A DNA stretch of 55,236 bases from the IMG/VR virus record IMGVR_UViG_3300026026_000014, positions 1 to 55,236 of that record. One strand, given 5' to 3'. The notes beneath the pieces were generated by a model. That model saw only the letters and a program-made list of their open reading frames with translations, was not told the DNA's origin and did not search any database. The translations under genes were made by a program, and so were the position numbers. The first letter of the stretch is position 1. Each line of letters starts with the position of its first letter. This document shows positions 15,593 through 35,064 of the stretch, one piece after another. This DNA is from a virus. Its lineage: Duplodnaviria; Caudoviricetes.

Positions 15593-16992
15593 TGTCAAAA
15601 CTCTGGATACCACATAAATATCAGCAAGATACTGAAGATTTTGCTATTGATAAATCATATGCAGGTTTATTATTGGATCCAGGTTTAGGTAAGACTTCTA
15701 TATCTCTTAATATGCTTAACAAGTTAAAGAGAAAAACTCTTGTTATTGCTCCACTTCGTGTATGTCATTTAGTGTGGCCTAATGAAACTAAAAAGTGGAC
15801 CAACTTTAATAACATAAAAATTGCGGTAATGCACGGAGCAGAGAAAGAAAAACAATTTTTGCGTAATGATGTTGGAGTTTATGTAATAAATCCTGAAGGT
15901 ATAGATTGGCTCCATGATATGATCAAAAAACATAAAAGATTTCCTTGGGAAATTCTTATTGTTGATGAATCTACTAAATTTAAAGCACATAAAGCAAAAC
16001 GATTTAAAATTCTAAAGACTTTTCTACGAATGTTTAAGAAACGTTATATTCTTACTGGCAGTTTAGTAAGTGGTGGATTACTTGATCTTTGGGCACAAAT
16101 ATACATTCTTGATCTCGGTAAAGCATTAGGAGAAACTTTCTATGCTTATCGTAATAAATACTTTTTTCAATCTGATTATCAAGGATTTAAGTTCGAACCT
16201 CATCCGTGGGCAATGGAACAAATTTTAGATAAGATAAAACCTTTCTGTATACATTTAAGCGCGCGAGATCACCTTGATCTTCCTGAAATGATAGTAAATG
16301 ACATATATGTGGATTTACCAGAGAAGGTAATGAAACAATATAAACAGATGGAAGATAAGTTATTTTCTGAATTGTCATATGATGAAGAATCATTTAAAGT
16401 GGTTGCGAGTTCTGCTGGTGTAGCTTATGGTAAATGTCGTCAAATAATTCAAGGGTTTATGTTTGAACATTTAGACGAGTTAGAGAAAGCGAAAGGTAGA
16501 AAACCTAAATTTTATCACATACATGATGAAAAAGCTCAAGCATTGAAATCATTCACTGATTCACTTGACGGGAATCCTGCAATGATAGCTTTCCATTATA
16601 AACCTGATCTGTTAAAACTACAAGAGTTATATCCAGGAATGCCTTATATAGGTTCTGGAGTTACAATGGACCAAACGCGAATTATAGAACGTGAATGGAA
16701 TCAAGGTAAATACCCTATACTTGGTGGACATCCTATGAGTATGGGACATGGATTAAATCTACAAGAATCTGGTTACAACGTTATATGGTATTGCCTTACA
16801 GATTCATATGAATTATATGATCAATACAATTGCCGAGTTTTAAGACAAGGTGCAAAATCTGATCATGTAATGGTTACGCGAATAATTGCCCGTGGTACTA
16901 TAGATGAAGCTACAATTATAAATCTTCAAAATAAAGGTAAAACGCAGTCTGATATGTTAAATGCACTTAAACTTTACAGGAGAATGTTATGA
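15592..16992 (+). CDS. SNF2-family helicase
   Basis: PHKYQ, DPGLGKT, IVDES, LTG, GHGLNLQ, Q...RVLRQG. Confidence 0.92.
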   Translation: MSKLWIPHKYQQDTEDFAIDKSYAGLLLDPGLGKTSISLNMLNKLKRKTLVIAPLRVCHLVWPNETKKWTNFNNIKIAVMHGAEKEKQFLRNDVGVYVINPEGIDWLHDMIKKHKRFPWEILIVDESTKFKAHKAKRFKILKTFLRMFKKRYILTGSLVSGGLLDLWAQIYILDLGKALGETFYAYRNKYFFQSDYQGFKFEPHPWAMEQILDKIKPFCIHLSARDHLDLPEMIVNDIYVDLPEKVMKQYKQMEDKLFSELSYDEESFKVVASSAGVAYGKCRQIIQGFMFEHLDELEKAKGRKPKFYHIHDEKAQALKSFTDSLDGNPAMIAFHYKPDLLKLQELYPGMPYIGSGVTMDQTRIIEREWNQGKYPILGGHPMSMGHGLNLQESGYNVIWYCLTDSYELYDQYNCRVLRQGAKSDHVMVTRIIARGTIDEATIINLQNKGKTQSDMLNALKLYRRML

Positions 16993-17576
16993 GAGATTTA
17001 AGAAAATTGGAACTTAAAATCGCAATTGCATTAGTTATATTCTTTGCTTCAATAGTTGTATATTTTGTACCAAGTCCTATTAAAGCAAAACCTATTGCTG
17101 CTATAGACTCTGCGGGACAAACTGCATGGATAGCAAATGTTTTAGAGACTCGCTATAAAGTAAAGAAACCATATTCTATTATGATAACTACTATGATAGA
17201 ACAAGCTTCTGTAGAATACAACATAAGTCCTATGATAATAATGTCTGTGATTAAAGTAGAATCTGATTATGTATCACGTAATGGTAAGCATGGCGAAATA
17301 GGATTTATGCAATTAAAACCTAAATTCTGGACTAAACCTTGTAACAAGTATGATATACACGATAAATATGAAAATATACTTGTTGGAGCTTGCGCAATAC
17401 GTTATAATATGAATCTCACTGACAATATAAGCGACGCACTTACGGCTTATAATATAGGATTCACTAATTTTGATAAAGATGTAAATTTGTTAAATGGATT
17501 CACTTATAGAGACAAAGTTCTTGATGAAAATATGGATTTAATTGATCTTTCACTTTTACCGATAGATACAAACTGA
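16989..17576 (+). CDS. membrane-anchored lytic transglycosylase (SLT domain)
   Basis: N-terminal TM helix; VIKVES (catalytic Glu), GFMQL, NILVGA, ALTAYNIG. Confidence 0.8.
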   Translation: MRDLRKLELKIAIALVIFFASIVVYFVPSPIKAKPIAAIDSAGQTAWIANVLETRYKVKKPYSIMITTMIEQASVEYNISPMIIMSVIKVESDYVSRNGKHGEIGFMQLKPKFWTKPCNKYDIHDKYENILVGACAIRYNMNLTDNISDALTAYNIGFTNFDKDVNLLNGFTYRDKVLDENMDLIDLSLLPIDTN

Positions 17577-18635: not shown

Positions 18636-18657
18636 ACATTTGGAGATCTCCAAGACC

Positions 18658-19323
18658 ATGAAAACCAACTTCGAAGACATAGTGGACTTTCATACGAAAT
18701 TTGGTATGGAAATGCCTACACAATTAATGAAATTGCCAAAAGATACCGTTGAATATCGCGGATGCTTTATGGTTGAAGAATTATCAGAATATGTAACCGC
18801 ATTCAAAGATAAAAACCATGAAGGTATGATAGATGCTCTTATAGATTTATCTTATGTAATTCAAGGCACCGCACTTATGCATGGTGAAAAGTGGGATGAT
18901 AACCATAAGAATTATTCAAAAGGTCCACGTAATCTTGAATATCTTGCACATACTATGATTTCTTCAGAGATCATAAAAGATGCTGCAAGTAGATTCGCTG
19001 CTCTCATTAAACTCTATTCAAAAGGAGTTATGTCTGAAAGTCCAATTGATCTTGAAGGAGGTATGGTATCATTGCATATAATGAATGCAATGGCTGTATC
19101 ACTCGCAGTAATTAGCGGATATAATTGGCAATTACATTGGGATGAAGTTCATAAATGTAATATGGCTAAAGAACGATCTAAAGGTGCAGATGATCCTCGT
19201 TCAAAAAGAGGTAGTGCACTTGATGTAGTTAAACCAGAAGGTTGGGTAGCTCCCAATCACACCCCCATAATTCAAGCAAAAGCTTTGCTTTTAACGGAGA
19301 AGTGCAATGTCAATAATCATTGA
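18658..19323 (+). CDS. all-alpha NTP pyrophosphohydrolase (MazG/PRA-PH-like; candidate dCTPase/dUTPase)
   Basis: FHTKFG, EELSE...DALIDLSYV..G, WDEVH..NMAK, KPEGW..P. Confidence 0.85.
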   Translation: MKTNFEDIVDFHTKFGMEMPTQLMKLPKDTVEYRGCFMVEELSEYVTAFKDKNHEGMIDALIDLSYVIQGTALMHGEKWDDNHKNYSKGPRNLEYLAHTMISSEIIKDAASRFAALIKLYSKGVMSESPIDLEGGMVSLHIMNAMAVSLAVISGYNWQLHWDEVHKCNMAKERSKGADDPRSKRGSALDVVKPEGWVAPNHTPIIQAKALLLTEKCNVNNH

Positions 19324-19879
19324 AGGTCCAGATTGTAGTGGTAAAAGCACATTGATTCTTGAGGAATTCAATGATTTATGCGTAATTCATAACGGAAGAT
19401 ATCCATCTCCTATGGAAGCATTTAAAGCATATTTAGGTCAATGTCCATCTCCACGATATAATTTCCATAATATTGTATGGGACCGTAATTATCCTTCTGA
19501 ACAAATTTATGGTAAAATTTATCGAAGTAAAAACATAGGTCAAGAACATATTGATGTCCTTGAGAAACATCTCGCAGATATTAAAACTGTCATTGTTTTA
19601 TGTTGTCCTCCAAAAGAAACAATCATTAACAATTGGCGTAAACTTAAACAAGAACGTAATGAATATATCGAAAATGAAAGTTATTTCGAAGATATAGTTA
19701 ATGAATATGACAAGTACTTTAATTTGTATGTTATGTTACCTGTAGTTCATTACGATTATACTGAAACTGCGTTCAACAAAGAAAATCCTATTAAAGTACG
19801 TATTGAACAAATGCGTACTATGTGGTATGATGGTTCTTTTAACAAAGGAATACCGAATTCAAGGGATATGAAACTATGA
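19307..19879 (+). CDS. deoxynucleoside monophosphate kinase (thymidylate kinase-like)
   Basis: IIIEGPDCSGKSTL P-loop; WDR...SE..YG. Confidence 0.85.
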   Translation: MSIIIEGPDCSGKSTLILEEFNDLCVIHNGRYPSPMEAFKAYLGQCPSPRYNFHNIVWDRNYPSEQIYGKIYRSKNIGQEHIDVLEKHLADIKTVIVLCCPPKETIINNWRKLKQERNEYIENESYFEDIVNEYDKYFNLYVMLPVVHYDYTETAFNKENPIKVRIEQMRTMWYDGSFNKGIPNSRDMKL

Positions 19880-20682
19880 TTAAGACATATCCTAATGCCA
19901 CAATGGCATGGCTCGATACATATAATGAAATACTTCTTAATGGCACACACGTCAGTCCAAGAGGTACAGAAACATTGGAATTGTTAAACAACAGTTTTGC
20001 ATTTGACATGAAGTATCCAATTTGCTATCACCAACATAGGAAATTAGCATATGGATTCTTGGCTGCAGAAGCTGACTGGATTACACGTGGGTCAAATCTC
20101 GTCGCAGATCTTACGCCTTATAATAAACGTATGGCAGATTTTAGTGATGATGGTGTTTATTTATCTGGTGCATATGGAATACCATATAATGAACAGTTTG
20201 ACTACGTACTTGCTGCTTTATGTAAAGATATTAACACACGTCAAGCAGTTATGACTATTTGGGGTAGAAATCCTAAAGATTCAAAAGACATCCCATGTAC
20301 TGTAGCTATGTCTTGGAATATACGTAATAATCGTTTAAACTGTCATGTCTTTATGCGCTCTAGCGATGCACATTTAGGATTACCTTATGACATGTTTAGT
20401 TTTACGATTATGACATTACGGTTATTATGCGCATATAATTGTAGGCAGTTCGATGGAAGTAAAATAATTCCAGGTAACATGTATATGAATTTGGCATCTA
20501 GTCACATCTATGAACAGCATTACAAAATTGCTCAAGAATGTTTAATGCTTCCACCAGACAAAATGACTAGTTCTATACCAGAATTCTGTTATGATAGTTG
20601 GGATAATGTGTATAGAGCTTTGAAATATTGTATGGATAAAGAAGTGACGTGTGAACCAATTTGGTACATTCGGCCATTATAA
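19876..20682 (+). CDS. thymidylate-synthase-superfamily enzyme, likely dCMP hydroxymethylase
   Basis: DIPC catalytic Cys; MRSSDAHLGLPYD with Asp at the Asn177-equivalent specificity site, as in T4 gp42; SHIYE. Confidence 0.8.
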   Translation: MIKTYPNATMAWLDTYNEILLNGTHVSPRGTETLELLNNSFAFDMKYPICYHQHRKLAYGFLAAEADWITRGSNLVADLTPYNKRMADFSDDGVYLSGAYGIPYNEQFDYVLAALCKDINTRQAVMTIWGRNPKDSKDIPCTVAMSWNIRNNRLNCHVFMRSSDAHLGLPYDMFSFTIMTLRLLCAYNCRQFDGSKIIPGNMYMNLASSHIYEQHYKIAQECLMLPPDKMTSSIPEFCYDSWDNVYRALKYCMDKEVTCEPIWYIRPL

Positions 20683-20691
20683 AAATTTTAG

Positions 20692-20720
20692 TTTACTTTG
20701 ATATAAACCGAGTATATAAT
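20692..20720 (+). promoter_or_regulatory. sigma70-like promoter upstream of the beta-glucosyltransferase operon
   Basis: TTTACT-17bp-TATAAT. Confidence 0.7.
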
Positions 20721-20760
20721 ACTCTTTTATTATATACTTAAATTTACTTTTAAACCAACC

Positions 20761-21027
20761 ATGAGGATATTTAAGATGTGGATTAACTTGCAAGGGAAGA
20801 GAATTTGTTTACTTGGATGTAATGCTATTGAACCAATTGAAGCAAAAGACGACAATAACGATCCTTTATATGGAATACGTTTTGATCACGAAGGTGTAGC
20901 TGTTAATGCTCTTACAAACGAGCATGCATTTAACTCAACTGCGGTATACTATCCAACTGAAAAGCAACGCGATGGTGTATTATCACAAATCGATGGTTTA
21001 CTTGAAAATCCAGCGGTATTAGTATGA
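20761..21027 (+). CDS. hypothetical protein
   Basis: ORF overlapping the bgt start; alternative start at 20776 with GAGGA RBS. Confidence 0.6.
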   Translation: MRIFKMWINLQGKRICLLGCNAIEPIEAKDDNNDPLYGIRFDHEGVAVNALTNEHAFNSTAVYYPTEKQRDGVLSQIDGLLENPAVLV

Positions 21028-22151
21028 AACTTGGTGTAATGAAGTTAGGTGCTTCTATTACGTGGTCTCAAGTCTCACGTACTGCTGCAAACTTCGATAT
21101 CCATTCAATAATTGGTTGTCTGCGATCTCCTGCTCAAATTACAGGAGACGTAGACATATCTATTATTACGCGCAATACGCGCAATACGTGGATACCTGAA
21201 GATATGCACTTTGTTGATATCATGAAAACTGATATTAACTCGCATGGATTTGATGCACTTGTTGTATTCAATGGTAATGTGAATTTCTTTGGAGGCGCAG
21301 AAGCTCCCGACCAAATTATGAATTATGTACATATGAACAGGTTTAATGGACCTATTATATATGTACAAACTGATGGTCAATTGCAACTTAAACAATTGTG
21401 GCCTGCTATTGAATGTAAAGATTGGGCTAAGAATTGGAAAGAGGAAGATATCGTAGTTAAACGTGATGATATTATTTACCTTTCACAAGCTCGCAGACCA
21501 GAACGAGTTTATGAACTTTGTCAAAAGAAAGGTAGTGTTCCTATTAAGAAGGAAAACATATATCACTTTCCAATTGAACAAGCTATTCTCGCTAAACGAG
21601 AGAATAGAATTGTACAGAAGCAGAAAGAATATGATCTTATCTACGGAGGTTCACTACGTGGAGGAGCTCGTAAGAAATTGCTTGAGAAGTATTACCTTGA
21701 TCAGTTTAATCTTAAGGTAGCGCTTTTTGGCAACGTAAAAAGAAAGGATTTTAAGGAATATAACAATATGCCTTCTTTCCTTTCTAAAGTAGAGCATCAC
21801 GCATTTATGAGTGCTCTTACAAGAGGTAAGTCTACTTGTATTATTGGTGATGAATGGTACTTTGATAATATGCATACATTGCGTATTTATGAGACTATTC
21901 GAGCTGATGTAGTATGCTTTGTGGCTACAGAGTTTGATCCGCGAAGAACAATCTTCAAAGATGATAAACTCAATGACTTTTTATATGTTTCATCGAAAGA
22001 GGAGCTTGCTGATAAAGCAAGAAGCTTAGATGCCAAAAAACTCTATTACATCACCGAATCACAAACATCATCAATCGATTTCAACAGAGATAGCTACGTT
22101 AATCGATTATATGCAAGATTTTCCGAAATACTCGGAGCGTATAAGCGTTGA
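21024..22151 (+). CDS. bgt: DNA beta-glucosyltransferase (T4 BGT homolog)
   Basis: collinear motifs with T4 BGT: NFFGG, TD (catalytic Asp100 position), Q.WP, FPIEQ, D.IYGGS.R.G.R, FGN, IIGD..Y.DN..TLR..ET, EFD, YV....EL. Confidence 0.9.
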   Translation: MKLGVMKLGASITWSQVSRTAANFDIHSIIGCLRSPAQITGDVDISIITRNTRNTWIPEDMHFVDIMKTDINSHGFDALVVFNGNVNFFGGAEAPDQIMNYVHMNRFNGPIIYVQTDGQLQLKQLWPAIECKDWAKNWKEEDIVVKRDDIIYLSQARRPERVYELCQKKGSVPIKKENIYHFPIEQAILAKRENRIVQKQKEYDLIYGGSLRGGARKKLLEKYYLDQFNLKVALFGNVKRKDFKEYNNMPSFLSKVEHHAFMSALTRGKSTCIIGDEWYFDNMHTLRIYETIRADVVCFVATEFDPRRTIFKDDKLNDFLYVSSKEELADKARSLDAKKLYYITESQTSSIDFNRDSYVNRLYARFSEILGAYKR

Positions 22152-22563
22152 TGAGTACTACATGGCAATGGCAATGTTGGCTGGATTAAGGTCAACTTGC
22201 TCAAGACGCCGTGTAGGATGTATATTAACTGACAAGACAAATAGAGTTTTGTCTGTCGGTTATAACGGTGTACCTAGAAAAGCTCCGCATTGCATAGATA
22301 ATCCATGTGCTGGTGCGGAGTCTCCTTCTGGACAAAATTTACAGAACTGTTACGCTACACATGCGGAGCAAAATGCACTGATATCTTGTAGAGACATACA
22401 AGCTATTCATACAGCATACGTTACAGCTTCGCCTTGTGATTCATGTGTAAAGTTGTTTGTAAATACCTCTTGTGAACGGATTGTTTTCTTAGATAAGTAT
22501 CCGTCTACAGGAGAAGAAATCTGGCATTTAACTGGTCGTAAATGGGAGCAATTGTATGGCTAA
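22111..22563 (+). CDS. dCMP deaminase
   Basis: RSTC.RR.VG, GYNG.P, HAEQNA and SPCDSC Zn motifs; start uncertain. Confidence 0.92.
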   Translation: MQDFPKYSERISVDEYYMAMAMLAGLRSTCSRRRVGCILTDKTNRVLSVGYNGVPRKAPHCIDNPCAGAESPSGQNLQNCYATHAEQNALISCRDIQAIHTAYVTASPCDSCVKLFVNTSCERIVFLDKYPSTGEEIWHLTGRKWEQLYG

Positions 22564-24579: not shown

Positions 24580-24608
24580 TTTACAAGCGGATAAATTTGA
24601 GATATAAT
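24580..24608 (+). promoter_or_regulatory. sigma70-like promoter for the accessory operon
   Basis: TTTACA-17bp-TATAAT. Confidence 0.7.
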
Positions 24609-25191: not shown

Positions 25192-25548
25192 TTGGAATTT
25201 GTGAGGTTGACAATAGTGACTAAAGTATCTACTTATTTAACTTTTAACGATGTGACACAATTCATTATCGATAATCCATCAAGGATTAGTGAAATAATGG
25301 AGGTATGTAAAGAACACCGTCTTACAGATCGTGAACTTGCTATCTTAAAATATATTCACACATCATTTCAAGAGCATACTTCGCCTTCAATTGCTAAAAG
25401 ATTTGATCTTTCTATACAAGCATCAAGTAACTATCTTACTAATTTATTTAAAAGAGGTTACCTAATGCGTAGAGATGTAGGAGATCCATCTGGTGGTATT
25501 ATGTTTGAATATGAATTAACTCACAAAGGATTCAAATATGTTAAGTAA
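25192..25548 (+). CDS. winged-helix (MarR-like) DNA-binding protein
   Basis: LTDRELAILKYI...SIAKRFDLSIQASSNYLTNLFKRGYL.R...YELTHKG; start uncertain. Confidence 0.7.
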   Translation: MEFVRLTIVTKVSTYLTFNDVTQFIIDNPSRISEIMEVCKEHRLTDRELAILKYIHTSFQEHTSPSIAKRFDLSIQASSNYLTNLFKRGYLMRRDVGDPSGGIMFEYELTHKGFKYVK

Positions 25549-26116
25549 CAATCCTGTAATTGTATTAGGTATTCCACGATCTGGCACAAGTTATATCGCT
25601 AAAGTACTTCATGCTGATATGGGAATAGAAATGTGCAGAAGTGTAACTGCTCCTTATCCAGGTCGTGATGATTTTGATTGGGAAGATCTTGAATTGCAAA
25701 ATCAGTTAGTAGTGTCAATAAATATGGACGAAGTTTATTCTGCACACAAATTCAAAATCTATTTAAGCAAACGCAGAGAGGCAAAACGTGCTCATTACTG
25801 GGGCGTAAAGAGTCCATTATTATGTATGTATCCAAATGTAATACCTAAAGATGCTTTTGTAATACTTACAAAACGTAATTTACATGATTGTATAAGATCT
25901 GTAAATAAATTACCAATTAATGTAGAACAGAAAAAGAGAGTTCTTGCTATACAAGATACTTGCAGAAAATCTCTATTTGCAATTAAACCAAATTTAACTC
26001 TAGATGTAGATGTACTTTCCAAAAATGAAATTCGCAAAATAATGGAGGACAAGATCGATGAATACTATCACCCGAATACTACTCATATTCTTAGTGATTC
26101 TGATGGCTCAGAGTAA
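25538..26116 (+). CDS. sulfotransferase-family protein
   Basis: 5'-PSB motif VIVLGIPRSGTS; WED; WGVKSP; 3'-PB-like RNLHDCIRS. Confidence 0.75.
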   Translation: MLSNNPVIVLGIPRSGTSYIAKVLHADMGIEMCRSVTAPYPGRDDFDWEDLELQNQLVVSINMDEVYSAHKFKIYLSKRREAKRAHYWGVKSPLLCMYPNVIPKDAFVILTKRNLHDCIRSVNKLPINVEQKKRVLAIQDTCRKSLFAIKPNLTLDVDVLSKNEIRKIMEDKIDEYYHPNTTHILSDSDGSE

Positions 26117-26567
26117 TGCTGAGGAATTAAAATCTCAAGGTATGTATATTTCAGTCGCATATGTTGCTAAAGATGGTATACGCGATGCGTTTATACCTAT
26201 GGGATCTATGGACTGCCGAACTGGACAAATGTATTTTGATAGTTTAGTAAAAGCAGAACTTGCTAGGAAATTTGAGTTCCAAAATCCCAAAGATACGAAT
26301 ATGATTCCAAAAGACGCTTTCGTAAAATCTACAGCCACTGAATTTGGATATGGGTGCATAGAAGTATATGGACTCAAACCAGATCCTAGTTATAAGTTCC
26401 AACTAGGTAATTTGCCAACAGGATCCTATTTCTTACATAGGTTATCTTCTGGTAAATTTGAGATACGAGCTATAAATGAAGATGCTTGCGAAGTTCAAAA
26501 ACAGATTGGATTAAGAATCCAAGATTTTTATGAGTGCTTCAAAAGTGACCAGTTGTTTTATCAATAG
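26058..26567 (+). CDS. exported hypothetical protein
   Basis: signal peptide ending SNA; GGAGG RBS. Confidence 0.6.
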   Translation: MNTITRILLIFLVILMAQSNAEELKSQGMYISVAYVAKDGIRDAFIPMGSMDCRTGQMYFDSLVKAELARKFEFQNPKDTNMIPKDAFVKSTATEFGYGCIEVYGLKPDPSYKFQLGNLPTGSYFLHRLSSGKFEIRAINEDACEVQKQIGLRIQDFYECFKSDQLFYQ

Positions 26568-26576
26568 GAGAGTACT

Positions 26577-27041
26577 ATGAAAATGTTATTTGCAGTGTTA
26601 TTATTAATGGTATCAAGTTTTGCCTTTGCTGAAGCTTCAATCGATCCTTATGTAGGAGTATCACGAACTGATATCACTGCATATGGTATTGATGGAACTA
26701 CAAAAGGTGGTGTAGTAGGTTTCTGGATGGATGACCATGCAGCAATCGAACTAAATTATGAACAAGATACAAATCTTGATAAGTATCAATTTAACTTGAT
26801 TGGTAGTATTGTTCATATCTATAAACAAAGATTAACTTGGCAGTTTGGGTATAATTACACTGAATTATCTGTACCAGGTGTTGATATAACTAAATCGTTT
26901 CCAAGTATTGGTCTAGGCTATGAAATACAACCTTTTCAGGCTTTAACGTTACGCGCTGAGTATAATTACTATTATCTCAAAGACGATGATGTTACATCAC
27001 GACCAAATGGCGTATCATTAGCTTTATTGTATAACTTTTAA
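26577..27041 (+). CDS. outer-membrane beta-barrel protein (OmpA-N/Ail-Lom-like)
   Basis: signal peptide AFA; alternating amphipathic strands; LRAEY; C-terminal YNF beta-signal. Confidence 0.75.
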   Translation: MKMLFAVLLLMVSSFAFAEASIDPYVGVSRTDITAYGIDGTTKGGVVGFWMDDHAAIELNYEQDTNLDKYQFNLIGSIVHIYKQRLTWQFGYNYTELSVPGVDITKSFPSIGLGYEIQPFQALTLRAEYNYYYLKDDDVTSRPNGVSLALLYNF

Positions 27042-27053
27042 TAGGAGATAATT

Positions 27054-27845
27054 ATGAAAAAATTACTTTTGGTATTTTGTATTACATGTTTAGTCGGGTG
27101 TTATAGTAATACAACACCTCCAGGATTTGAATCTGTTGTAATTGAAAATCCTTTTATATTAGGTCATGGTGGTGTTCAAGATACTACGCAAAAACCTGGT
27201 TTATCTTGGTATTTCATGTCTACAAAAACTGTGGATGTGGCCCTCACACCAATAAAGTATGATGAACCATTGGAACATCTAACTACAGGTGATAACAACT
27301 TTATCAACTATAATAGTTATATAGTGTTACAATGGAAAGATCCTGCTTATATGGTTAAGACATTTGGATATTCTAAATGGTACGAAAACAATTTACAAGA
27401 ACAATATCGTACAATTGTCCGTGATGTAACCAAAGAATATTCAATGACTAAAATCATGACTGATCAACAAACTTTATTAGAAATTGAAAATAAAGTCGCT
27501 GAAAGGTTCCGTAAACATATTGAATCAACTGGTTTGCATGTTGATTTAATTAATGTTAATATGGGAAAAAGTCTTCCAAATGCGAGTGTAATATCTGAAA
27601 TGGATAATACAGCTGTTCAACAACAACGTATTAAAACTGAGAGTCAATGTAAACTTGCAGAAGACTCACGTATGGCAGCAGAACAGAGTAGGGCGAAGGC
27701 TGATAATGCATATCGTGAATCTATGCAATTGAATGCTTCTCAATTTGTGCAACTTGAATCTATTAAAAAGTATTCAGAAGCTTGTTCAATTTCTAAAAGT
27801 TGTATAATAGTGCAAGGTAACGCACCTGTACTTGTGGGACAATAA
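27054..27845 (+). CDS. SPFH/band-7 domain lipoprotein
   Basis: lipobox LVGC; PPG.E.V...P...GHGGV; C-terminal coiled coil AEQSRAKAD. Confidence 0.8.
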   Translation: MKKLLLVFCITCLVGCYSNTTPPGFESVVIENPFILGHGGVQDTTQKPGLSWYFMSTKTVDVALTPIKYDEPLEHLTTGDNNFINYNSYIVLQWKDPAYMVKTFGYSKWYENNLQEQYRTIVRDVTKEYSMTKIMTDQQTLLEIENKVAERFRKHIESTGLHVDLINVNMGKSLPNASVISEMDNTAVQQQRIKTESQCKLAEDSRMAAEQSRAKADNAYRESMQLNASQFVQLESIKKYSEACSISKSCIIVQGNAPVLVGQ

Positions 27846-27846
27846 T

Positions 27847-28548
27847 ATGAAACTTGAAGTTTTAGATCATGGATATGTAGAACTCATTGAGACATGGGGC
27901 AGTGAAGAGCGAATTGTAGAAGCTGCCCGTATGTCTACAGGTAAAGGTTTCAAAGGTTGGGGAACTCCTATTGAACCAGGTGATGAGAAACTTCTGGCGC
28001 ATTTATACAGAAATAATCATGCCACACCTTTTGAAATGGCGGGACTTATTATTGAAGTGAAAGCTCCAATAATGGTGTTCAGAGAATGGCATAGACACCG
28101 TACTCAAAGTTACAACGAAATGAGTGCACGTTATATTCCAATCCCTGATGAAAACTACATTCCATCTATAGAGCGACTTTTAGGATCAAATGCTGCTACA
28201 AGTAATAAACAAGCGCAGAATACTACAGGTCGCGAACTATTAGTTGGTGATGCAGTATGTTTTCAAGATGATCTTGAGAAAATATACCAAAGCGCTCAAC
28301 ATCTTTATGAAAGAGCTCTTTTAGATGGTATACCAAAAGAACTTGCTCGCTTATGTTTACCAGTCGGTAGATATTCACGTATGAGAGCATCTGCTAATTT
28401 ACGTAATTGGTTAGCGTTCTTAAAATTGCGTCAGACTCAGTTTGCTCAGTATGAAATTCGAGTTTATGCAGATGCAATAGGTAAAATCATTGAGAGTAAA
28501 TTTCCATATACGTGGGAATTATATCTTGAAGAGACCACTAAGTTTTGA
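27847..28548 (+). CDS. thyX: flavin-dependent thymidylate synthase
   Basis: H.TPFE, ThyX motif RHRTQSYNEMSAR, ELARLCLP, AQYEIR. Confidence 0.95.
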   Translation: MKLEVLDHGYVELIETWGSEERIVEAARMSTGKGFKGWGTPIEPGDEKLLAHLYRNNHATPFEMAGLIIEVKAPIMVFREWHRHRTQSYNEMSARYIPIPDENYIPSIERLLGSNAATSNKQAQNTTGRELLVGDAVCFQDDLEKIYQSAQHLYERALLDGIPKELARLCLPVGRYSRMRASANLRNWLAFLKLRQTQFAQYEIRVYADAIGKIIESKFPYTWELYLEETTKF

Positions 28549-28567: not shown

Positions 28568-28593
28568 AAGGAGCCTTACGGCTCCTTCTTTTT
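28568..28593 (+). terminator. intrinsic terminator ending the + strand arm
   Basis: AAGGAGCC-TTAC-GGCTCCTT plus a T-run. Confidence 0.8.
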
Positions 28594-28608
28594 AATTGTG
28601 ACTTATGA

Positions 28609-29637: not shown

Positions 29638-32600
29638 TCATAGTCCTATTGCTGTGAATATTGCTGCAATTGCTGCAGCTCCAATATCTGTATCATAAAT
29701 ACCTACAAGGCACATATCACCATTGAAGTAAGAAGATCCAGAATCATGTGATCTACCAATATAATTTGAAGCTCTAGTGACGTTAGCCAAGAACGTAGTT
29801 CCTGTATTTGAACTTACCAAAGAGCCATTGAGATAGTGGTATATTTTACCTGTGTTATCCTGGCGGACACAATACATTTTCCAGTCTCCATCCGTAATAG
29901 TAGATGTAGATGTATGAGTATTAGATACTGCTGCGGCAACATAAACTTGTGAATACATCGAAGTACCAGTACCTGAACGTCCAAATCTAAAGTTATCATT
30001 TGGCCAAGTGGTATTCTCTGCTAAGTCAATAAACTGTGCGTCATTAGCATTAGTTAAAGGTCTAGCAAGTACGAACATTGTAAAGCCAGAAGTGAAGTTC
30101 GCAAATCCAGTAGTAGGTAATGAGATGTAATCATTTGAACCATCGAATACTGCGCACTTAATGTTTTCGCGAATAACTCCCATGGTCATACCACCATTAA
30201 GAGTTCCATGTCTTACGTTACCAGATAGATCTGGAACAACTGTACCAGAAGGAGTTGTATTCATGCCATAAAGTGCGTATGGAGTATAGGACAACGCAGA
30301 TGTAATTGCCGCAGATAAGTCTATCTCAGGATTAACATCTGCTTGATAAATTGTAGAATCCCATGAATAGCAATCATCAATCATAGTATTAGAGAAAGGT
30401 TGATCACCAAAGTTTATTTGTATATGTGTAGTAGTTTGGTTACTGTTACATATACCTGGGTAATAAGTACCTGAAGGTAATACCATATCTTTTCTGCCTA
30501 AAGTAGGACTTATGAAAGTTATTTCTCCGATATCAAGATCTACACAAATCATTACCCATTCATTAGCAGGAACGGTGGCTAATGTTTTTATCAAAGTACC
30601 TACAGTGTAAACCTGTCCGTTACTTGGATATATAGCAGTTCCCATACCTGCTGCGCCAAGTAGAGAACCTGTTGCGGGATTTGTAGTAACTCCAAAGATT
30701 ATATTGGTGTCCATGTATGAAGCTCTAGCTTCAAAAGCCCAACGTCCAGAACTTTTTGGGGCATTAGCATAAACACCTTTATTACCAGAAGCAGTGTTAC
30801 CTTTAATTAATGTATCGTCCATCAATACATCTAATCCTGCAGCTTTAAGCGATAGTAGTAACTTGTTAGGATTATACACGAATCCACTACATAAATTACC
30901 ATCTACAGAAGTATATCTTGGAGGTATGCTATTTACAAAAGCTGTATCGCCTAAATTAAGGTGTAATTCTTCGTTATCATAAACCCAACCTGCTACGTAA
31001 TAGTCTGTGTCGGTGAACAATATATTTTGGTGTATAACTATAGGTACTTTATTATCGCGACGGCACAATAGTATCCCACCAGTAGTTGAATCAATAAAGT
31101 TAACTATGAATTGAAATACATCGCCTGGACTACCTGCTTGTATATGAGATCCGTAATTGACATTTGATCCGTTAGTATATCCTAAAGCATTAAACACAAA
31201 TCCAAAGTCATCATCGCGTTGTCCTACATATTGTGTTAAAGCATCTGCTTCCTTATATGAAGTAATACCAATACCTACTTGAGAATTAGTACCTTGAAAT
31301 GAAGCTTCAAATACATATCTGCCATAACGCGTCATAGGTATATAAGCCATAACACGTTTATAATATGAACCACTTACAGCTGTTGCGATAGTTTTAGCGG
31401 GATTAAAGGTTACATTTGAGTGACTCATAGCTGGTAACCAATTATATTCGTAATAGTTACCAATTTCGCTCCATGTGAATAAATCACGGATTGATTTAGG
31501 TGTAAAAGTAATTCCTTCAAATAAAGAAACTTGAGATAAACTTCCACCAAAACTATTTACTGAATTACCAGAATCATCAGGTCTTGAACCAATAAATAAT
31601 CTCGCGGCGTTAGATGCTACAGAGGTATCTGCAGTTACAGTTGTAAATTGATATATTTGATATATTGCACCATTTATGTAGAGTTCAACTATATTAGTTG
31701 TTGTATCTATGTTTACAGCGCAACTATGCCAACGTCCATCATTAATTACTTGTCTACCAACAGTTTTCTCCATAGTAGTTGTATAATTGCTAGAACGTCC
31801 AAAAACAAGTTTACCATTATCAAATCCGATACTAAATGGTATTTTATGTCCTGCAGAACCTACAGATTCTCTTAATTCCACTACAGTATTACCGCCGTAC
31901 CAATTTGCACCAGCGGTATTTCCTGTAAATTTAAAGAAGAATGAAATACAATACTTAGAAGACACAATACCTATATTTGTAAATGGATGTCCTCCTGCCA
32001 AATTGTCAACGACTCTTAAGTATTTTGCTGCGTTAGGAAAATCTATACCTCTATTAGAAGCTATGTATTGACTTGGACCTTCTACATCTAGTGTTGGTGA
32101 ACCTATAAATGTTCCGTTAGTAGCATATGAACCATAATCTACAGCGGTACTTCCAGAAAGTTCATCCATTTTATAAAACATATCAGCGCCATAACCAATA
32201 AATACATCGTCTAATTGAGTTACTGCCGTTGTACCCGCTGTATACAAATCGCTTATATTAGTTGAAGTCCACTCATTATTATCGATAGTTAATGCGGCGA
32301 TAAGACCTGTCATGAATTTAGTATTGTTGGTACTATCATAACCCCAACACAATCTATCTACTGCAGTACCAGCATATACTTTTCTAGTTGCACTTCCTAT
32401 TAATGAACCATTGATATATAAACGTCCACCATTCGCAGCAGATTCTGTATATGTAACAAAATATCTTGTATTAGCTACGACAGTAGGCCATGATATAGTC
32501 ATAAGAGATCCACCGCTCTTATCTACATATATCTTTCCGTTGTGTTCATAAATCTTTAACGAATATTCGTTAGTTGTACCTGCATGTTGCATAAACAATA

Positions 32601-35064
32601 TTTGATCAGTACCTGTGTTAACTGCGTCAAGTTTTATCCATAGAGATATCGTAAAACTTGAGGTATCTGAGAATATCTTTTCAGTAGTGTATGCGCCATC
32701 ATTACCTGAGAATTTAACTGTTGGTTGATTGGCACCATCTACTAATATAGCACTATCCCAAATAGGAGTACCATAGTATTTAGCATCATGTCCATTGTTA
32801 GACCAATCTATAACAGTTACAAGACCATATTCTGCCATCAAATAATATGCAACTGGTGTTAGAGTTTCTAGTAATAAACTGTATGGATCTTCTAAAGAAG
32901 GGAATAGTACTGTGAATGACATTATGTTTTTCTGCCAACTAGTTCTACCACCTAAAGATGTTTCCACTTCTAATCTGAGATTCTTAACTATAGAACCATT
33001 TATGTCTGTTAAATACTGACTCTTAGAATATGCGTATGCATGATCAGAAGGTATTGCGGAAGTTATAGAACGTATAAGAGCATTTGTGTCATCGTTATAA
33101 ATGTTAATAGTCATTGTAGTACCGGCTTCCATAGCAAAGTTACCAGCGTAAGAATCATCAAAAACTTGATCACCCATAACTAAACGACCACGTTCCATCC
33201 AACCTATGTTAAGGTTTAAATCGAAATATATTTCAGTATTGTCTGGATAATATAATCCTTCTACTGTTAAACGTGCGACATTATACGGACGTTTAATACG
33301 ATAGTTAGTTGTATATAGGTGGTATGTAGCCGCAGATTCGGCTAATACACCTACACCGGTAGAAGGTAAAAACTTGAAGTATACATTCTCTGGACTTGAG
33401 CGTACATTACTTTCGCCATCAGCTACTGTGAAATCAGTTATGTAACATACAGTATCTTTTGCGTGCGTACGAGGTCTTGTATCTAAACAACCGCGTTTTA
33501 TTACAGCAGTTAACAAAGTCACGTTAACTGAAGTTATTTGACACCATTCACTATCTATTAGAATGAATTGTAATGGAACTACTAAATCCATCATGTCATC
33601 ATCATAGAATGATATAGTAGTTTGGTATTCATTAATTGCTGCTAATAGTTTACAAGTAGGATTGAAATATGCAACTCCAGCCAAAGAGAAAGAAGACTCA
33701 CCAGGACCTTGAGCCATAATCTTATAACTTAAAGCGTCTGGAGCATTCTTCTTAACATATGAACCTACCATAGCATAACCTGGATCTGCAGATTCAGTGT
33801 TGATACCATTTGATAATGCCCAATATTGATAAGGGAATTCTTCTAATTTATAAGTTGTAACGTCTACCGGAGACGATACAGGAGTAGTCCAAGCTGTTGG
33901 AGGAGGTGGAGCATAAATAGTGTTTGCAATACTGAATACATCCTGTACGCAGGTTAACGTAATAGAACGGTCATCTGTACTTCCATAAGATATTTCAACA
34001 ATACGTAATACCATTTCCTGGATATCATATGCGTCCCAATGCCATACAATAGCATCACCTAATCCTAAGTTATAAGCATCTCTGTTAACATGTAATTCTA
34101 CGCGAGACAAAGGCGCTGACAATTGAGTTAACTGACGTTGCGCAATTTTGTTAGCAAGTGTAGCGTCTGTAATTGCAGGATATTCTACAGTGGAAGTTAC
34201 TGTATATCCTTGCTTAGAAATCAATGCAGAATCATGCACTTTAATGTTACGTGGAGTTTCGTCACTAGCATCCGTATATGTAAGCAAAACTTCATTTACT
34301 GTTTCACCTATAGACGGACGGTCATATTTCACTACTTCGATAATGTTGTCTTCGTTGAAAACTTTTAGCGCTCCAACAGTATAATCATTACGAATAAGTT
34401 TCATGGTCCATAAACCAGTGTATGGACTAATATATACGGATGCGCTTATGTGACGTACGATTTCTTGTAAAAATTGACTTACATCTTGTTCTTGAGACCA
34501 AACAAATGATAAACCAAATCCCTCAGTATATAAAGTATTTGCTGCATTAGTGAATGCTGTAAGGTCTAATTCACCAATATTATAACCTAAACCGAATTCA
34601 TTATTTGTTAACACTTCAACAATAACATGGGCAGGATTGTGATCATTACCAATTTTGGCCTTAGCAGAATACCATGAACTATGATAAGCTTCGCAAACAT
34701 AAGACCAGTATTTTATATACGGGCTTGTACCTACATAAACATGTTTCAATACTGTAGCAAATACACCTCTATATGCTGGTACTGTGGAACCTAATTTAGC
34801 GACTAAATATCCGTTTTGAGTTTGGTCACTTCTACCGAAACAAACACTTACATCGCCTTTAATACCGCCTTCACTATGGTATCCGCCAAAACAGTTCATG
34901 GCATCTATTGAGATATCTTGATTAGTAGTTACATTACCTGTCCAAACTTTTGAATCTCCAACTACTACTTCTCTAAGTGCAGTTATACTGTCATGTCCAA
35001 TTACATGATGCATACCTAAATAGTAAGCATGTGCAATTGTTTGTTTAGTCGATTTACTTCCCAT
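29638..35064 (-). CDS. tail tip / host-specificity protein with C-terminal LamG- and SPRY-like domains
   Basis: N-terminus YYLGMH...PAYRGV...NPAHVI typical of D3112/YuA/chi-like tail tips; repeated lectin motifs (FTISLWIK, DGRWH, LYING). Confidence 0.85.
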   Translation of the reverse strand: MGSKSTKQTIAHAYYLGMHHVIGHDSITALREVVVGDSKVWTGNVTTNQDISIDAMNCFGGYHSEGGIKGDVSVCFGRSDQTQNGYLVAKLGSTVPAYRGVFATVLKHVYVGTSPYIKYWSYVCEAYHSSWYSAKAKIGNDHNPAHVIVEVLTNNEFGLGYNIGELDLTAFTNAANTLYTEGFGLSFVWSQEQDVSQFLQEIVRHISASVYISPYTGLWTMKLIRNDYTVGALKVFNEDNIIEVVKYDRPSIGETVNEVLLTYTDASDETPRNIKVHDSALISKQGYTVTSTVEYPAITDATLANKIAQRQLTQLSAPLSRVELHVNRDAYNLGLGDAIVWHWDAYDIQEMVLRIVEISYGSTDDRSITLTCVQDVFSIANTIYAPPPPTAWTTPVSSPVDVTTYKLEEFPYQYWALSNGINTESADPGYAMVGSYVKKNAPDALSYKIMAQGPGESSFSLAGVAYFNPTCKLLAAINEYQTTISFYDDDMMDLVVPLQFILIDSEWCQITSVNVTLLTAVIKRGCLDTRPRTHAKDTVCYITDFTVADGESNVRSSPENVYFKFLPSTGVGVLAESAATYHLYTTNYRIKRPYNVARLTVEGLYYPDNTEIYFDLNLNIGWMERGRLVMGDQVFDDSYAGNFAMEAGTTMTINIYNDDTNALIRSITSAIPSDHAYAYSKSQYLTDINGSIVKNLRLEVETSLGGRTSWQKNIMSFTVLFPSLEDPYSLLLETLTPVAYYLMAEYGLVTVIDWSNNGHDAKYYGTPIWDSAILVDGANQPTVKFSGNDGAYTTEKIFSDTSSFTISLWIKLDAVNTGTDQILFMQHAGTTNEYSLKIYEHNGKIYVDKSGGSLMTISWPTVVANTRYFVTYTESAANGGRLYINGSLIGSATRKVYAGTAVDRLCWGYDSTNNTKFMTGLIAALTIDNNEWTSTNISDLYTAGTTAVTQLDDVFIGYGADMFYKMDELSGSTAVDYGSYATNGTFIGSPTLDVEGPSQYIASNRGIDFPNAAKYLRVVDNLAGGHPFTNIGIVSSKYCISFFFKFTGNTAGANWYGGNTVVELRESVGSAGHKIPFSIGFDNGKLVFGRSSNYTTTMEKTVGRQVINDGRWHSCAVNIDTTTNIVELYINGAIYQIYQFTTVTADTSVASNAARLFIGSRPDDSGNSVNSFGGSLSQVSLFEGITFTPKSIRDLFTWSEIGNYYEYNWLPAMSHSNVTFNPAKTIATAVSGSYYKRVMAYIPMTRYGRYVFEASFQGTNSQVGIGITSYKEADALTQYVGQRDDDFGFVFNALGYTNGSNVNYGSHIQAGSPGDVFQFIVNFIDSTTGGILLCRRDNKVPIVIHQNILFTDTDYYVAGWVYDNEELHLNLGDTAFVNSIPPRYTSVDGNLCSGFVYNPNKLLLSLKAAGLDVLMDDTLIKGNTASGNKGVYANAPKSSGRWAFEARASYMDTNIIFGVTTNPATGSLLGAAGMGTAIYPSNGQVYTVGTLIKTLATVPANEWVMICVDLDIGEITFISPTLGRKDMVLPSGTYYPGICNSNQTTTHIQINFGDQPFSNTMIDDCYSWDSTIYQADVNPEIDLSAAITSALSYTPYALYGMNTTPSGTVVPDLSGNVRHGTLNGGMTMGVIRENIKCAVFDGSNDYISLPTTGFANFTSGFTMFVLARPLTNANDAQFIDLAENTTWPNDNFRFGRSGTGTSMYSQVYVAAAVSNTHTSTSTITDGDWKMYCVRQDNTGKIYHYLNGSLVSSNTGTTFLANVTRASNYIGRSHDSGSSYFNGDMCLVGIYDTDIGAAAIAAIFTAIGL

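Follow-up and report, generated by a model that had tools for sequence, protein, structure and literature searches.

A compact sulfotransferase-type protein encoded beside envelope genes in an uncultured tailed phage that also carries a DNA glucosylation module

The sulfotransferase-type gene and its conserved motifs

The DNA analyzed in this study is the whole linear record IMGVR_UViG_3300026026_000014, from an uncultured phage (Duplodnaviria; Caudoviricetes), which is ~66% complete and has a G+C content of 35.6%; its 55,236 bases are referred to here as the window. The gene under study is an open reading frame (ORF) of 192 amino acids (aa) on the plus strand, whose product resembles the sulfotransferases that use 3'-phosphoadenosine 5'-phosphosulfate (PAPS). 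A Shine-Dalgarno-like AAGGA lies 8 nt 5' of its ATG, which overlaps the stop of an upstream winged-helix ORF. The initial annotation of the window described an ORF of this length with four motifs, and the ORF and all four motifs were found at 25538-26116, as follows.

25538..26116, plus strand: minimal sulfotransferase-type ORF, ATG start, 192 aa (78 relatives; profile match at E 1.9e-10; AlphaFold2 model with a predicted local distance difference test score, pLDDT, of 94.1)
25568..25591, plus strand: phosphate loop GIPRSGTS (G11-I-P-R14-S-G16-T-S18), residues 11-18, after strand 1, aligning with GVPRSGTT of TPST1
25679..25687, plus strand: W48-E49-D50, residues 48-50, with E49 in 73/73 and D50 in 65/73 relatives
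25799..25816, plus strand: WGVKSP (W88-G-V-K91-S-P93), residues 88-93, after strand 2, aligning with N-K-D-P of TPST1
25874..25900, plus strand: RNLHDCIRS (R113...S121), residues 113-121, aligning with the R...S segment of TPST1 and Stf1

Conservation was read from an alignment (A1) of 73 of the 78 hits returned by the exhaustive search described below, with P0010 (a repeat artefact), P0060 (402 aa, fused), P0024, P0063 and P0073 left out. G16, E49, G89, K91 and R113 are invariant in these 73 relatives, whilst R14 and S121 are each present in 72, with either Arg or Lys at position 14 in every member. The residue after the loop Gly, at position 17, is Thr in 68 members, Ser in five and Lys in none. 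The segment R14-S-G-T-S18 fits the sulfotransferase loop pattern [KR]-[ST]-G-T-[TS], in which the Gly is not followed by Lys, and the Walker A pattern G-x4-G-K-[ST] is absent, a Lys following G16 in 0 of the 73. An Arg at a strand end with a Ser eight residues on, the canonical spacing of the 3'-phosphate-binding motif, is provided by R113 and S121. Judged from this alignment, the motifs are not chance occurrences, and the loop is by its sequence of the 5'-phosphosulfate-binding type and not a Walker A loop.

E49 is the sole invariant acidic residue of the family. In TPSTs the catalytic Glu lies ~21 residues after the loop Arg and is regarded as defining, and the position aligned to this Glu of the TPST 'CGEE' segment (position 34) holds Glu in 16 of the 73 relatives and Arg in the window protein. 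Since the TPST-equivalent Glu is poorly kept, the invariant E49 is proposed as a candidate catalytic base. The N-terminus is modeled as strand 1 (residues 7-11) leading into the phosphate loop, which agrees with the earlier description of a protein that has no signal peptide; the window protein is cytoplasmic.

Membership of the sulfotransferase superfamily

When 1.84 billion representative sequences were searched exhaustively with HMMER, 78 proteins matched at E<=1e-3, of which seven, including the query, reached E<=1e-10. Nearly all of the hits are 160-230 aa long, so that the family can be described as having members of ~190 aa. The best relative, P0002, matched at E 1.2e-26 with 40% identity, and the six closest relatives (P0002-P0007) are 31-45% identical to the query. 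Pfam matches among the 73 aligned relatives were to PF13469 in 47 (E<=1e-3), PF00685 in 11, PF17784 in three and Stf0 in one. When the A1 profile was searched against the PDB, the top nine rows were all sulfotransferases, with Stf1 (2zq5) at E 1.9e-10, TPST1 at 3.9e-9, Stf9 at 8.2e-8 and TPST2 at ~1e-6, and these were followed by CurM and the cytosolic SULTs; the first unrelated protein stood at E 0.007 and the first kinase at E 0.92. Because 47 of the 73 relatives match PF13469 and the profile reaches E 1.9e-10, kinship with the superfamily stands, and the motif census, the Pfam matches of the relatives and the profile matches all bear out the original description of a sulfotransferase-type enzyme with both PAPS-binding motifs.

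A hit of 5507 aa, P0010, was dropped despite E 7.4e-9 against the query, as it consists of 76-residue tandem repeats, 14 copies of which score 0-2.4 bits each, and has no match to the family hidden Markov model. It represents a type of artefact to be watched for in phmmer lists, where insignificant repeat matches are summed.

The AlphaFold2 model, built on A1, has a predicted template modeling score of 0.88 in addition to the high pLDDT given above, with only the last ~15 residues uncertain, and consists of four core strands and flanking helices in an alpha/beta core. Sulfotransferases and P-loop kinases have this core in common. Compared with 48,161 chains in VIA-align, the model matched sulfotransferases over 158-173 residues, namely Stf1 at Z 11.7 over 171 residues, Stf9 at Z 11.1 over 173, TPST1 at Z 11.3 and the TPSTs together at 11.1-11.3.

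Some of the search results count against the assignment to sulfotransferases. As a single sequence, the window protein matches Sulfotransfer_3 (PF13469) at E 7.6e-5, and Sulfotransfer_4 and Sulfotransfer_1 more weakly, yet its 23.5 bits fall under the PF13469 gathering cut-off of 27, and PHROG and NCBIfam gave no matches to the ORF. Small kinases lead the fold comparisons: in VIA-align they stand at Z 11.8-12.3 (dephospho-CoA kinase 12.3, guanylate kinase 12.2), in Foldseek against the PDB dephospho-CoA kinase comes first (E 6e-5, template modeling score 0.53), with guanylate and shikimate kinases also near the top (E ~1e-4, template modeling score ~0.5) and a TPST at rank 48, and Foldseek against BFVD returned viral kinases. 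Searches with the lone sequence were likewise unproductive, phmmer against the PDB giving a ribosomal protein as its best match (E 0.28), a word-indexed protein search matching the protein only to itself, and megablast and tblastn of the ORF finding no match in 50,697 GenBank phages. The lone window sequence is therefore outside the curated Pfam family, and by its motifs, profile and predicted fold it would belong to the superfamily.

These fold results raise the alternative that the protein is not a sulfotransferase in function, being instead a P-loop kinase-like enzyme that uses a nucleoside triphosphate, for example with a nucleotide or hydroxymethyl-pyrimidine DNA as its substrate, or else a non-catalytic binder of PAPS or of the product 3'-phosphoadenosine 5'-phosphate (PAP). 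Adenylate kinase, too, is among the top Foldseek and VIA-align matches, ~190 aa is the size of a small kinase, and, compared with classical sulfotransferases, whose aligned chains are 276-414 aa, the C-terminal third is missing. The Z-scores are, however, tied within one unit, which gives kinases no edge, and in the model sulfotransferases and P-loop kinases are inseparable by fold alone. As the fold does not discriminate, the phosphate loop was taken as the discriminating feature, and here all members have Arg or Lys three residues before the position of a Walker lysine, as in sulfotransferases, and the R113/S121 pair is conserved. With the Walker lysine in 0 of 73 members and kinases appearing in the profile search only at E 0.92, identity as a P-loop kinase was rejected, and the wider alternative, binder included, is regarded as very improbable. 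It is considered highly likely, on the other hand, that the protein is a sulfotransferase of the PAPS type, pared down to the core.

A comparison can be made with the 5-hydroxymethyluracil DNA kinase of thymidine-hypermodifying phages, a small ATP-using P-loop enzyme that has a Walker A lysine and forms an ester at a hydroxyl of modified phage DNA. Both are of one fold class, but the window family is without the Walker lysine in 73 of 73 members, and downstream substitution enzymes were not seen in the window.

Distribution and genomic context of the family

The family comes, so far, almost wholly from uncultured tailed-phage sequences. Pattern scans placed members in 10 IMG/VR records and eight metagenome contigs; the patterns used matched no member among 185,579 species-representative prokaryote genomes, a result that argues only weakly for true absence. 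No relatives were found in the 50,697 GenBank phages by tblastn with three different members, and the loci encoding P0002, P0003, P0005, P0006 and P0007 were sought in viral contigs and none was found, whilst P0004 matched a single stretch. The nearest ESM Atlas clusters are mostly viral, with 81-100% (Uroviricota) in three of the four feature sets listed, and in those clusters that carry a family, PF13469 is present on 23-70% of members.

Sugar-related genes are frequent beside family members elsewhere. In locus L010 the member is adjoined by two GT1 and one GT2 glycosyltransferases, L007 has a GT2 neighbor (L009 likewise, by similarity), and in L014 the neighbor is RGP, a transferase of the reversibly-glycosylated-polypeptide type. 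Other neighbors are a DegT aminotransferase (L015), an SDR/epimerase (L003) and an ATP-grasp protein (L005), and no recognizable family was found in the direct neighbors in L002, L004 and L008. Among 73 ORFs within <=5 kb in nine loci, matches were to Methyltransf_23 (four), Epimerase (three), RmlD (two), GT1 (two) and GT2 (two), with single matches to DegT, Polysacc_synt_2, NeuB, CTP_transf_3, GT11 and RGP; tail proteins are also present.

Longer relatives point the same way. Glycosyltransferase domains (GT2, GT1 or Anp1) were recognized in 12 of 20 such proteins at a profile E<=1e-5, TPR together with phosphodiesterase or sulfatase domains in three, and a domain recognized as nucleic-acid related in none. 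The metagenomic glycosyltransferase-sulfotransferase fusions P0079, P0081, P0083-P0089, P0091, P0093 and P0098, which carry the family domain at E 2.7e-40 to 7.9e-6, offer in this analysis the strongest hint of a family directed at sugars. In these fusions the sulfotransferase is joined to another enzyme, whereas the window protein stands alone, and the fusions, all uncharacterized, are more like the members in the opposite half of the family tree. That tree, from a quick maximum-likelihood search on 84 rows, splits the family in two with a Shimodaira-Hasegawa-like approximate likelihood ratio test support of 95, and the window clade, P0001-P0007, is supported at 97. For the family at large, the neighbors and the fusions make action on sugars well supported.

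Several further arrangements were observed in these sequences. Across P0060 and P0079-P0098, the sulfotransferase domain is fused to a small viral GT-A-like domain, to large GT2 or GT1 domains, or to TPR and phosphodiesterase/sulfatase domains. P0060 itself carries the motifs GTGRSGTS and NPQGDWED in its fused form and resembles the other half of the tree. Its N-terminal half matches the GT2-like neighbor in L010 only at a BLASTP E of 0.084, which is not significant, and phmmer of P0060 against the PDB gave no matches; the ESM Atlas places that half near small viral GT-A-like clusters in which 19-35% of members carry PF00535, and this serves as a lead only. The ~200-aa viral GT-A-like domain forms large, mostly unannotated Uroviricota clusters. 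L002:267-12055 also holds three large unannotated ORFs of 390, 715 and 1421 aa, and its enzymes might be virion-associated. In the viral contig L006:5340-11408, and in the near-identical L011, a Sulfotransfer_4 match (E 3e-13), a Sulfotransfer_1 match (E 5.8e-5), a weak family member and a DUF1501 protein form a sulfation cluster within a DNA-metabolism region, where they are interleaved with endonuclease VII, an Ogg-HhH-type glycosylase and a DNA ligase homologous to that of the window, and the order of ligase followed by sulfotransferase resembles the order in the window.

Gene neighborhood in the window

The genes and signals around the sulfotransferase gene, from its best promoter-like site to the end of the arm, are as follows.

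24580..24608, plus strand: sigma-70-like promoter, the best match 5' of the unit (TTTACA-17-TATAAT, 11/12), a consensus match only
25192..25548, plus strand: winged-helix protein, 118 aa (DnaD_N E 1.1e-5, HTH_45 and MarR, all under curated cut-offs; phrog_3502, phrog_4221)
26058..26567, plus strand: 169-aa protein with a signal-peptide-like N-terminus and its own GGAGG word upstream, sharing 59 bases with the 3' end of the sulfotransferase gene
26577..27041, plus strand: outer-membrane beta-barrel-type protein, 154 aa (PF13505 OMP_b-brl, E 8.8e-7, 29.7 bits against a cut-off of 28.7)
27054..27845, plus strand: SPFH/Band 7 protein, 263 aa (PF01145 Band_7, E 1.2e-13; phrog_200 'lipoprotein', E 2e-20)
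27832..28548, plus strand: ThyX, the final gene of the plus arm (PF02511, E 7.4e-41)
28568..28597, plus strand: intrinsic-terminator-like hairpin with a T-run, eight pairs of which five are G-C, 20 bases 3' of ThyX

The placement beside envelope genes in the initial annotation is correct, given the signal-peptide-like 169-aa protein, the OMP_b-brl protein and the Band_7 protein that follow. The 169-aa protein has no matches in Pfam, PHROG or NCBIfam, and the N-terminal LVGC of the SPFH/Band 7 protein was taken as a putative lipobox. Between the promoter-like site and the terminator lie small ORFs, the winged-helix and sulfotransferase genes, the genes for the three exported proteins, and ThyX. 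The sulfotransferase gene thereby appears to sit in a unit of its own with three exported envelope proteins and ThyX, apart from the DNA-modification module, the bounding signals of this putative unit being consensus matches only.

The three exported proteins (26058-27845) form a cassette within the early/middle arm that may serve superinfection exclusion or envelope remodeling. The hairpin, at 28568-28587 and strongly terminator-like, lies at the junction of the convergent plus (early) and minus (lysis/structural) arms.

The DNA-modification module and the case for sulfated DNA

The initial annotation set the sulfotransferase gene alongside DNA glucosylation, ~3.4 kb after a DNA beta-glucosyltransferase (BGT) gene. 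This context is correct: a module with a hydroxymethylase and a T4-type BGT is recognized from matches to PF00303, PF09198 and phrog_7922, and the distance holds, since the BGT-like gene ends at 22151 and the gap to the ORF is 3387 bases.

19876..20682, plus strand: thymidylate-synthase-family pyrimidine hydroxymethylase candidate (PF00303, E 1.5e-21; best phage relatives annotated 'pyrimidine hmase')
21024..22151, plus strand: T4-type DNA beta-glucosyltransferase homologue (PF09198, E 4.8e-17; phrog_7922, E 1e-49)

In the hydroxymethylase candidate, the ThyA Asn that specifies deoxyuridine monophosphate is replaced by Asp ('lglpyD' vs 'lgvpfN'), a replacement that we take to mark cytosine-specific enzymes. 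Relatives of the BGT homologue occur in 122 of the GenBank phages, in some of which they are annotated as b-gt or beta glucosyl transferase, whereas a search of viral contigs with the BGT-like protein gave no close relative. The module, at 18640-22563, also includes a MazG-like pyrophosphatase, a thymidylate-kinase-like protein (phrog_761) and a dCMP deaminase. The modified base would then be 5-hydroxymethylcytosine (5hmC), with 5-hydroxymethyluracil or 5-hydroxycytosine as other candidates; hydroxymethylase homologues can also make 5-hydroxy-dCMP, according to PMC13326640.

With ThyX (27832-28548) included, the window holds a T4-like nucleotide scheme in a 55-kb record whose tail genes look non-contractile. 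The dCMP deaminase ORF (22030-22563) overlaps the BGT ORF by 122 bases and its Pfam match begins only at residue 40; the true start is therefore probably an internal Met downstream.

The initial annotation proposed that the enzyme might sulfate the glucose on hydroxymethylcytosine. On this proposal, glucosyl-5hmC in the phage DNA would be sulfated after replication, and the resulting anionic second layer would block type IV enzymes that recognize glucosyl-5hmC. The surroundings give it some footing: the window has the hydroxymethylase candidate with its Asp and, around it, genes for dNMP-kinase-like, MazG-like and dCMP deaminase proteins, the enzyme is cytoplasmic, and six of the seven clade members are basic (isoelectric point 8.3-9.3, against a family median of 6.7), which is a weak hint. 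The family also looks sugar-directed, with 12 of the 20 longer relatives bearing glycosyltransferase domains, and its members adjoin phage-encoded glycosyltransferases, so that they may act on the product of the phage's own transferase. Among the larger ORFs of the window the T4-type BGT homologue is the only glycosyltransferase found, which by analogy would favor DNA as the acceptor.

A link of this kind would be expected to appear as co-occurrence with BGT or hydroxymethylase genes, which the initial annotation had named as a check, and the records in which family members were found do not show it. Nine other viral records carry family members, these being distant relatives and not P0002-P0007, in records 15-85% complete. 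PF09198 was found in 0 of these nine, with the window positive as a control, and PF00303 in one of nine, where its 394 bits represent an ordinary ThyA-level match. The C5 DNA methylase family PF00145 was likewise found in 0 of the nine, its controls being positive in nine of 14, whilst Tet_JBP was found in 0 of 10 sulfotransferase-bearing records and also in none of the controls, and is hence uninformative. The 122 phages with a BGT relative, among the 50,697 from GenBank, gave no match by tblastn with three family members. The window is the one case found in which the family and a DNA glucosylation pathway occur together.

The position of the gene also speaks against a part in DNA modification. 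It is not within the modification cluster, being separated from the BGT gene by 3.4 kb and roughly twelve ORFs, which include the dCMP deaminase, DUF6378, the ligase and small ORFs, with the promoter candidate at 24580 in between, and it apparently belongs to another unit. None of the 20 longer relatives is fused to a recognized nucleic-acid-related domain. Additionally, sulfating every modified cytosine would presumably need much PAPS, and no PAPS-synthesis genes were found in the window, as noted in the initial annotation: APS_kinase and PAPS_reduct/CysD-type (PF01507) profiles had no match across the 55,236 bases, with controls positive in 12 and 14 of 14 known genomes. As the record is ~66% complete, this absence is valid for the window only. 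APS kinase was also found in 0 of the nine other viral records, L014 being outside that search.

The descriptions of glycosylated phage DNA considered here are silent on such a step in their main texts. Pyle et al. (bioRxiv 10.1101/2023.12.21.572611) do not mention sulfation there, supplementary gene-cluster tables aside, and in the main text of PMC13326640 'sulf' occurs only as sodium dodecyl sulfate. With no co-occurrence of BGT in the nine incomplete records, no family member in the GenBank phages and a gene outside the module, the evidence leans against a dedicated DNA role, and sulfation of DNA glucose is judged unlikely. Host surface glycans, which the initial annotation offered as the other possible target, are at least as well supported as DNA.

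Proposed activity and acceptor

The ORF would encode a genuine PAPS-dependent O-sulfotransferase stripped to a catalytic core of ~180 residues, and the enzyme is probably active. In the mechanism proposed, PAPS made by the host would bind with its 5'-phosphosulfate at the R14-S-G-T-S18 loop and with its 3'-phosphate at R113 and S121. K91 and R14 would stabilize the leaving sulfate, whilst the invariant E49 would deprotonate the acceptor hydroxyl, which would take the sulfuryl group and leave PAP. The acceptor may be a hydroxyl of a sugar in some glycoconjugate other than DNA, made where a host envelope pathway faces the cytoplasm, such as a precursor of lipopolysaccharide (LPS) or capsule or another that is lipid-linked, and the gene may form part of a surface-remodeling or exclusion cassette, apparently co-transcribed with the genes for the secreted 169-aa protein, the barrel and the SPFH lipoprotein. 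This view is taken because the gene overlaps the signal-peptide-like ORF, exported genes follow it, and the BGT module lies outside the bracketing signals. This reading, in which the core enzyme is active and draws on host PAPS to sulfate an envelope-linked sugar other than DNA, is the one we favor, though tentatively and at somewhat less than even odds.

Several observations weigh against the envelope sugar. All of the glycan-cluster loci lie in the half of the tree opposite the window clade, and the P0001-P0007 clade has no context locus of its own. The only context locus in the window's half is L002, where the neighbors are internal-virion-protein-like and acetyltransferase-like and include no glycosyltransferase. 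Because the glycan loci all fall in the other half, the sugar inference is weakened for the window protein, and its transfer from the family at large is moderate at best. The window's larger ORFs include no envelope-glycan gene. The promoter-like site on which the unit partly depends is one of 28 in the region, against 30.1 in shuffled sequences, which is no excess, and the supply of PAPS by the host is assumed.

A protein or peptide acceptor was also considered. A TPST- or RaxST-like enzyme could sulfate tyrosine or another hydroxyl on the co-encoded exported protein before its export, or on a host protein. The profile matches to TPST1 and TPST2 are full length (E 3.9e-9 to 1.4e-6, query positions 3-184), the fold matches to them reach Z 11.1-11.3, the gene is joined by a translational overlap to the next gene with its signal-peptide-like N-terminus, and the L002 homologue lies among virion-protein-like genes and not among glycosyltransferases. 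The position of the TPST catalytic Glu, however, is Arg here and Glu in only 16 of the 73 relatives, the best PDB match is to Stf1 and not to a TPST, the fusions in the family are with glycosyltransferases, and the downstream protein has no acidic tyrosine cluster obvious by eye. Such an acceptor is considered improbable, to about the same degree as DNA glucose. The envelope-linked sugar continues to be preferred, and the probability that remains beyond it and the alternatives considered falls to an acceptor of some other kind.

Comparison with characterized enzymes and significance

The solved relatives are 1.5-2 times longer than the phage protein. The mycobacterial enzymes Stf1 (2zq5) and Stf9 (2z6v), which matched at E 1.9e-10 and 8.2e-8, have in common with it the R-[ST]-G-T-T loop, a K-x-P element and the R...S pair, but their chains are those of 384-414 aa with long insertions between the core elements, of which the phage protein keeps the core only. 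TPST1 and TPST2 (5wri, 5wrj, 3ap1-3) match over nearly the full length, with GVPRSGTT corresponding to GIPRSGTS and N-K-D-P to G-V-K-S-P. Their chains are 276-355 aa, and the invariant E49 of the phage family lies in a loop that TPST lacks. The kind of enzyme is thus already known, whereas the subfamily is unannotated, compact and largely viral, and is missed by current phage annotation resources. A sulfotransferase of this core-only type could be a useful minimal scaffold for enzymology.

To our knowledge, sulfation is a rare chemistry in phage biology. No characterized phage sulfotransferase or sulfated DNA base was found in full-text literature searches, supplements aside. If these enzymes are active, phages would put sulfate on glycans belonging to the host surface, to virions or to DNA, which would alter charge, receptor recognition or nuclease recognition.

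Second-layer modification of DNA sugars has precedents. Pyle et al. (bioRxiv 10.1101/2023.12.21.572611), on phage gene clusters for 5hmC glycans, report mono-, di- or tri-saccharides, and polyarabinosylated 5-hydroxycytosine is reported in PMC13326640. In these systems a further group is placed on the sugar of a modified cytosine, and the window has the genes for the first layer. If it were to prove true, sulfation of DNA glucose, or of another modified-base hydroxyl, would be the first sulfated DNA modification and an anionic layer against modification-dependent nucleases. This phage would be the natural test case for sulfated DNA, as the family meets DNA glucosylation here, even though the evidence leans the other way.

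Other features of the window

Two observations elsewhere in the window may be recorded. The gene for an SLT-domain lytic transglycosylase (16989-17576, plus strand, E 5.2e-10) directly follows that for the SNF2 helicase in the replication arm, at a long distance from the lysis region. On the minus strand, an ORF of 1808 aa (29638-35064) lies between tail-assembly-like genes and two small unannotated ORFs, and is presumably a tail or central fiber protein.

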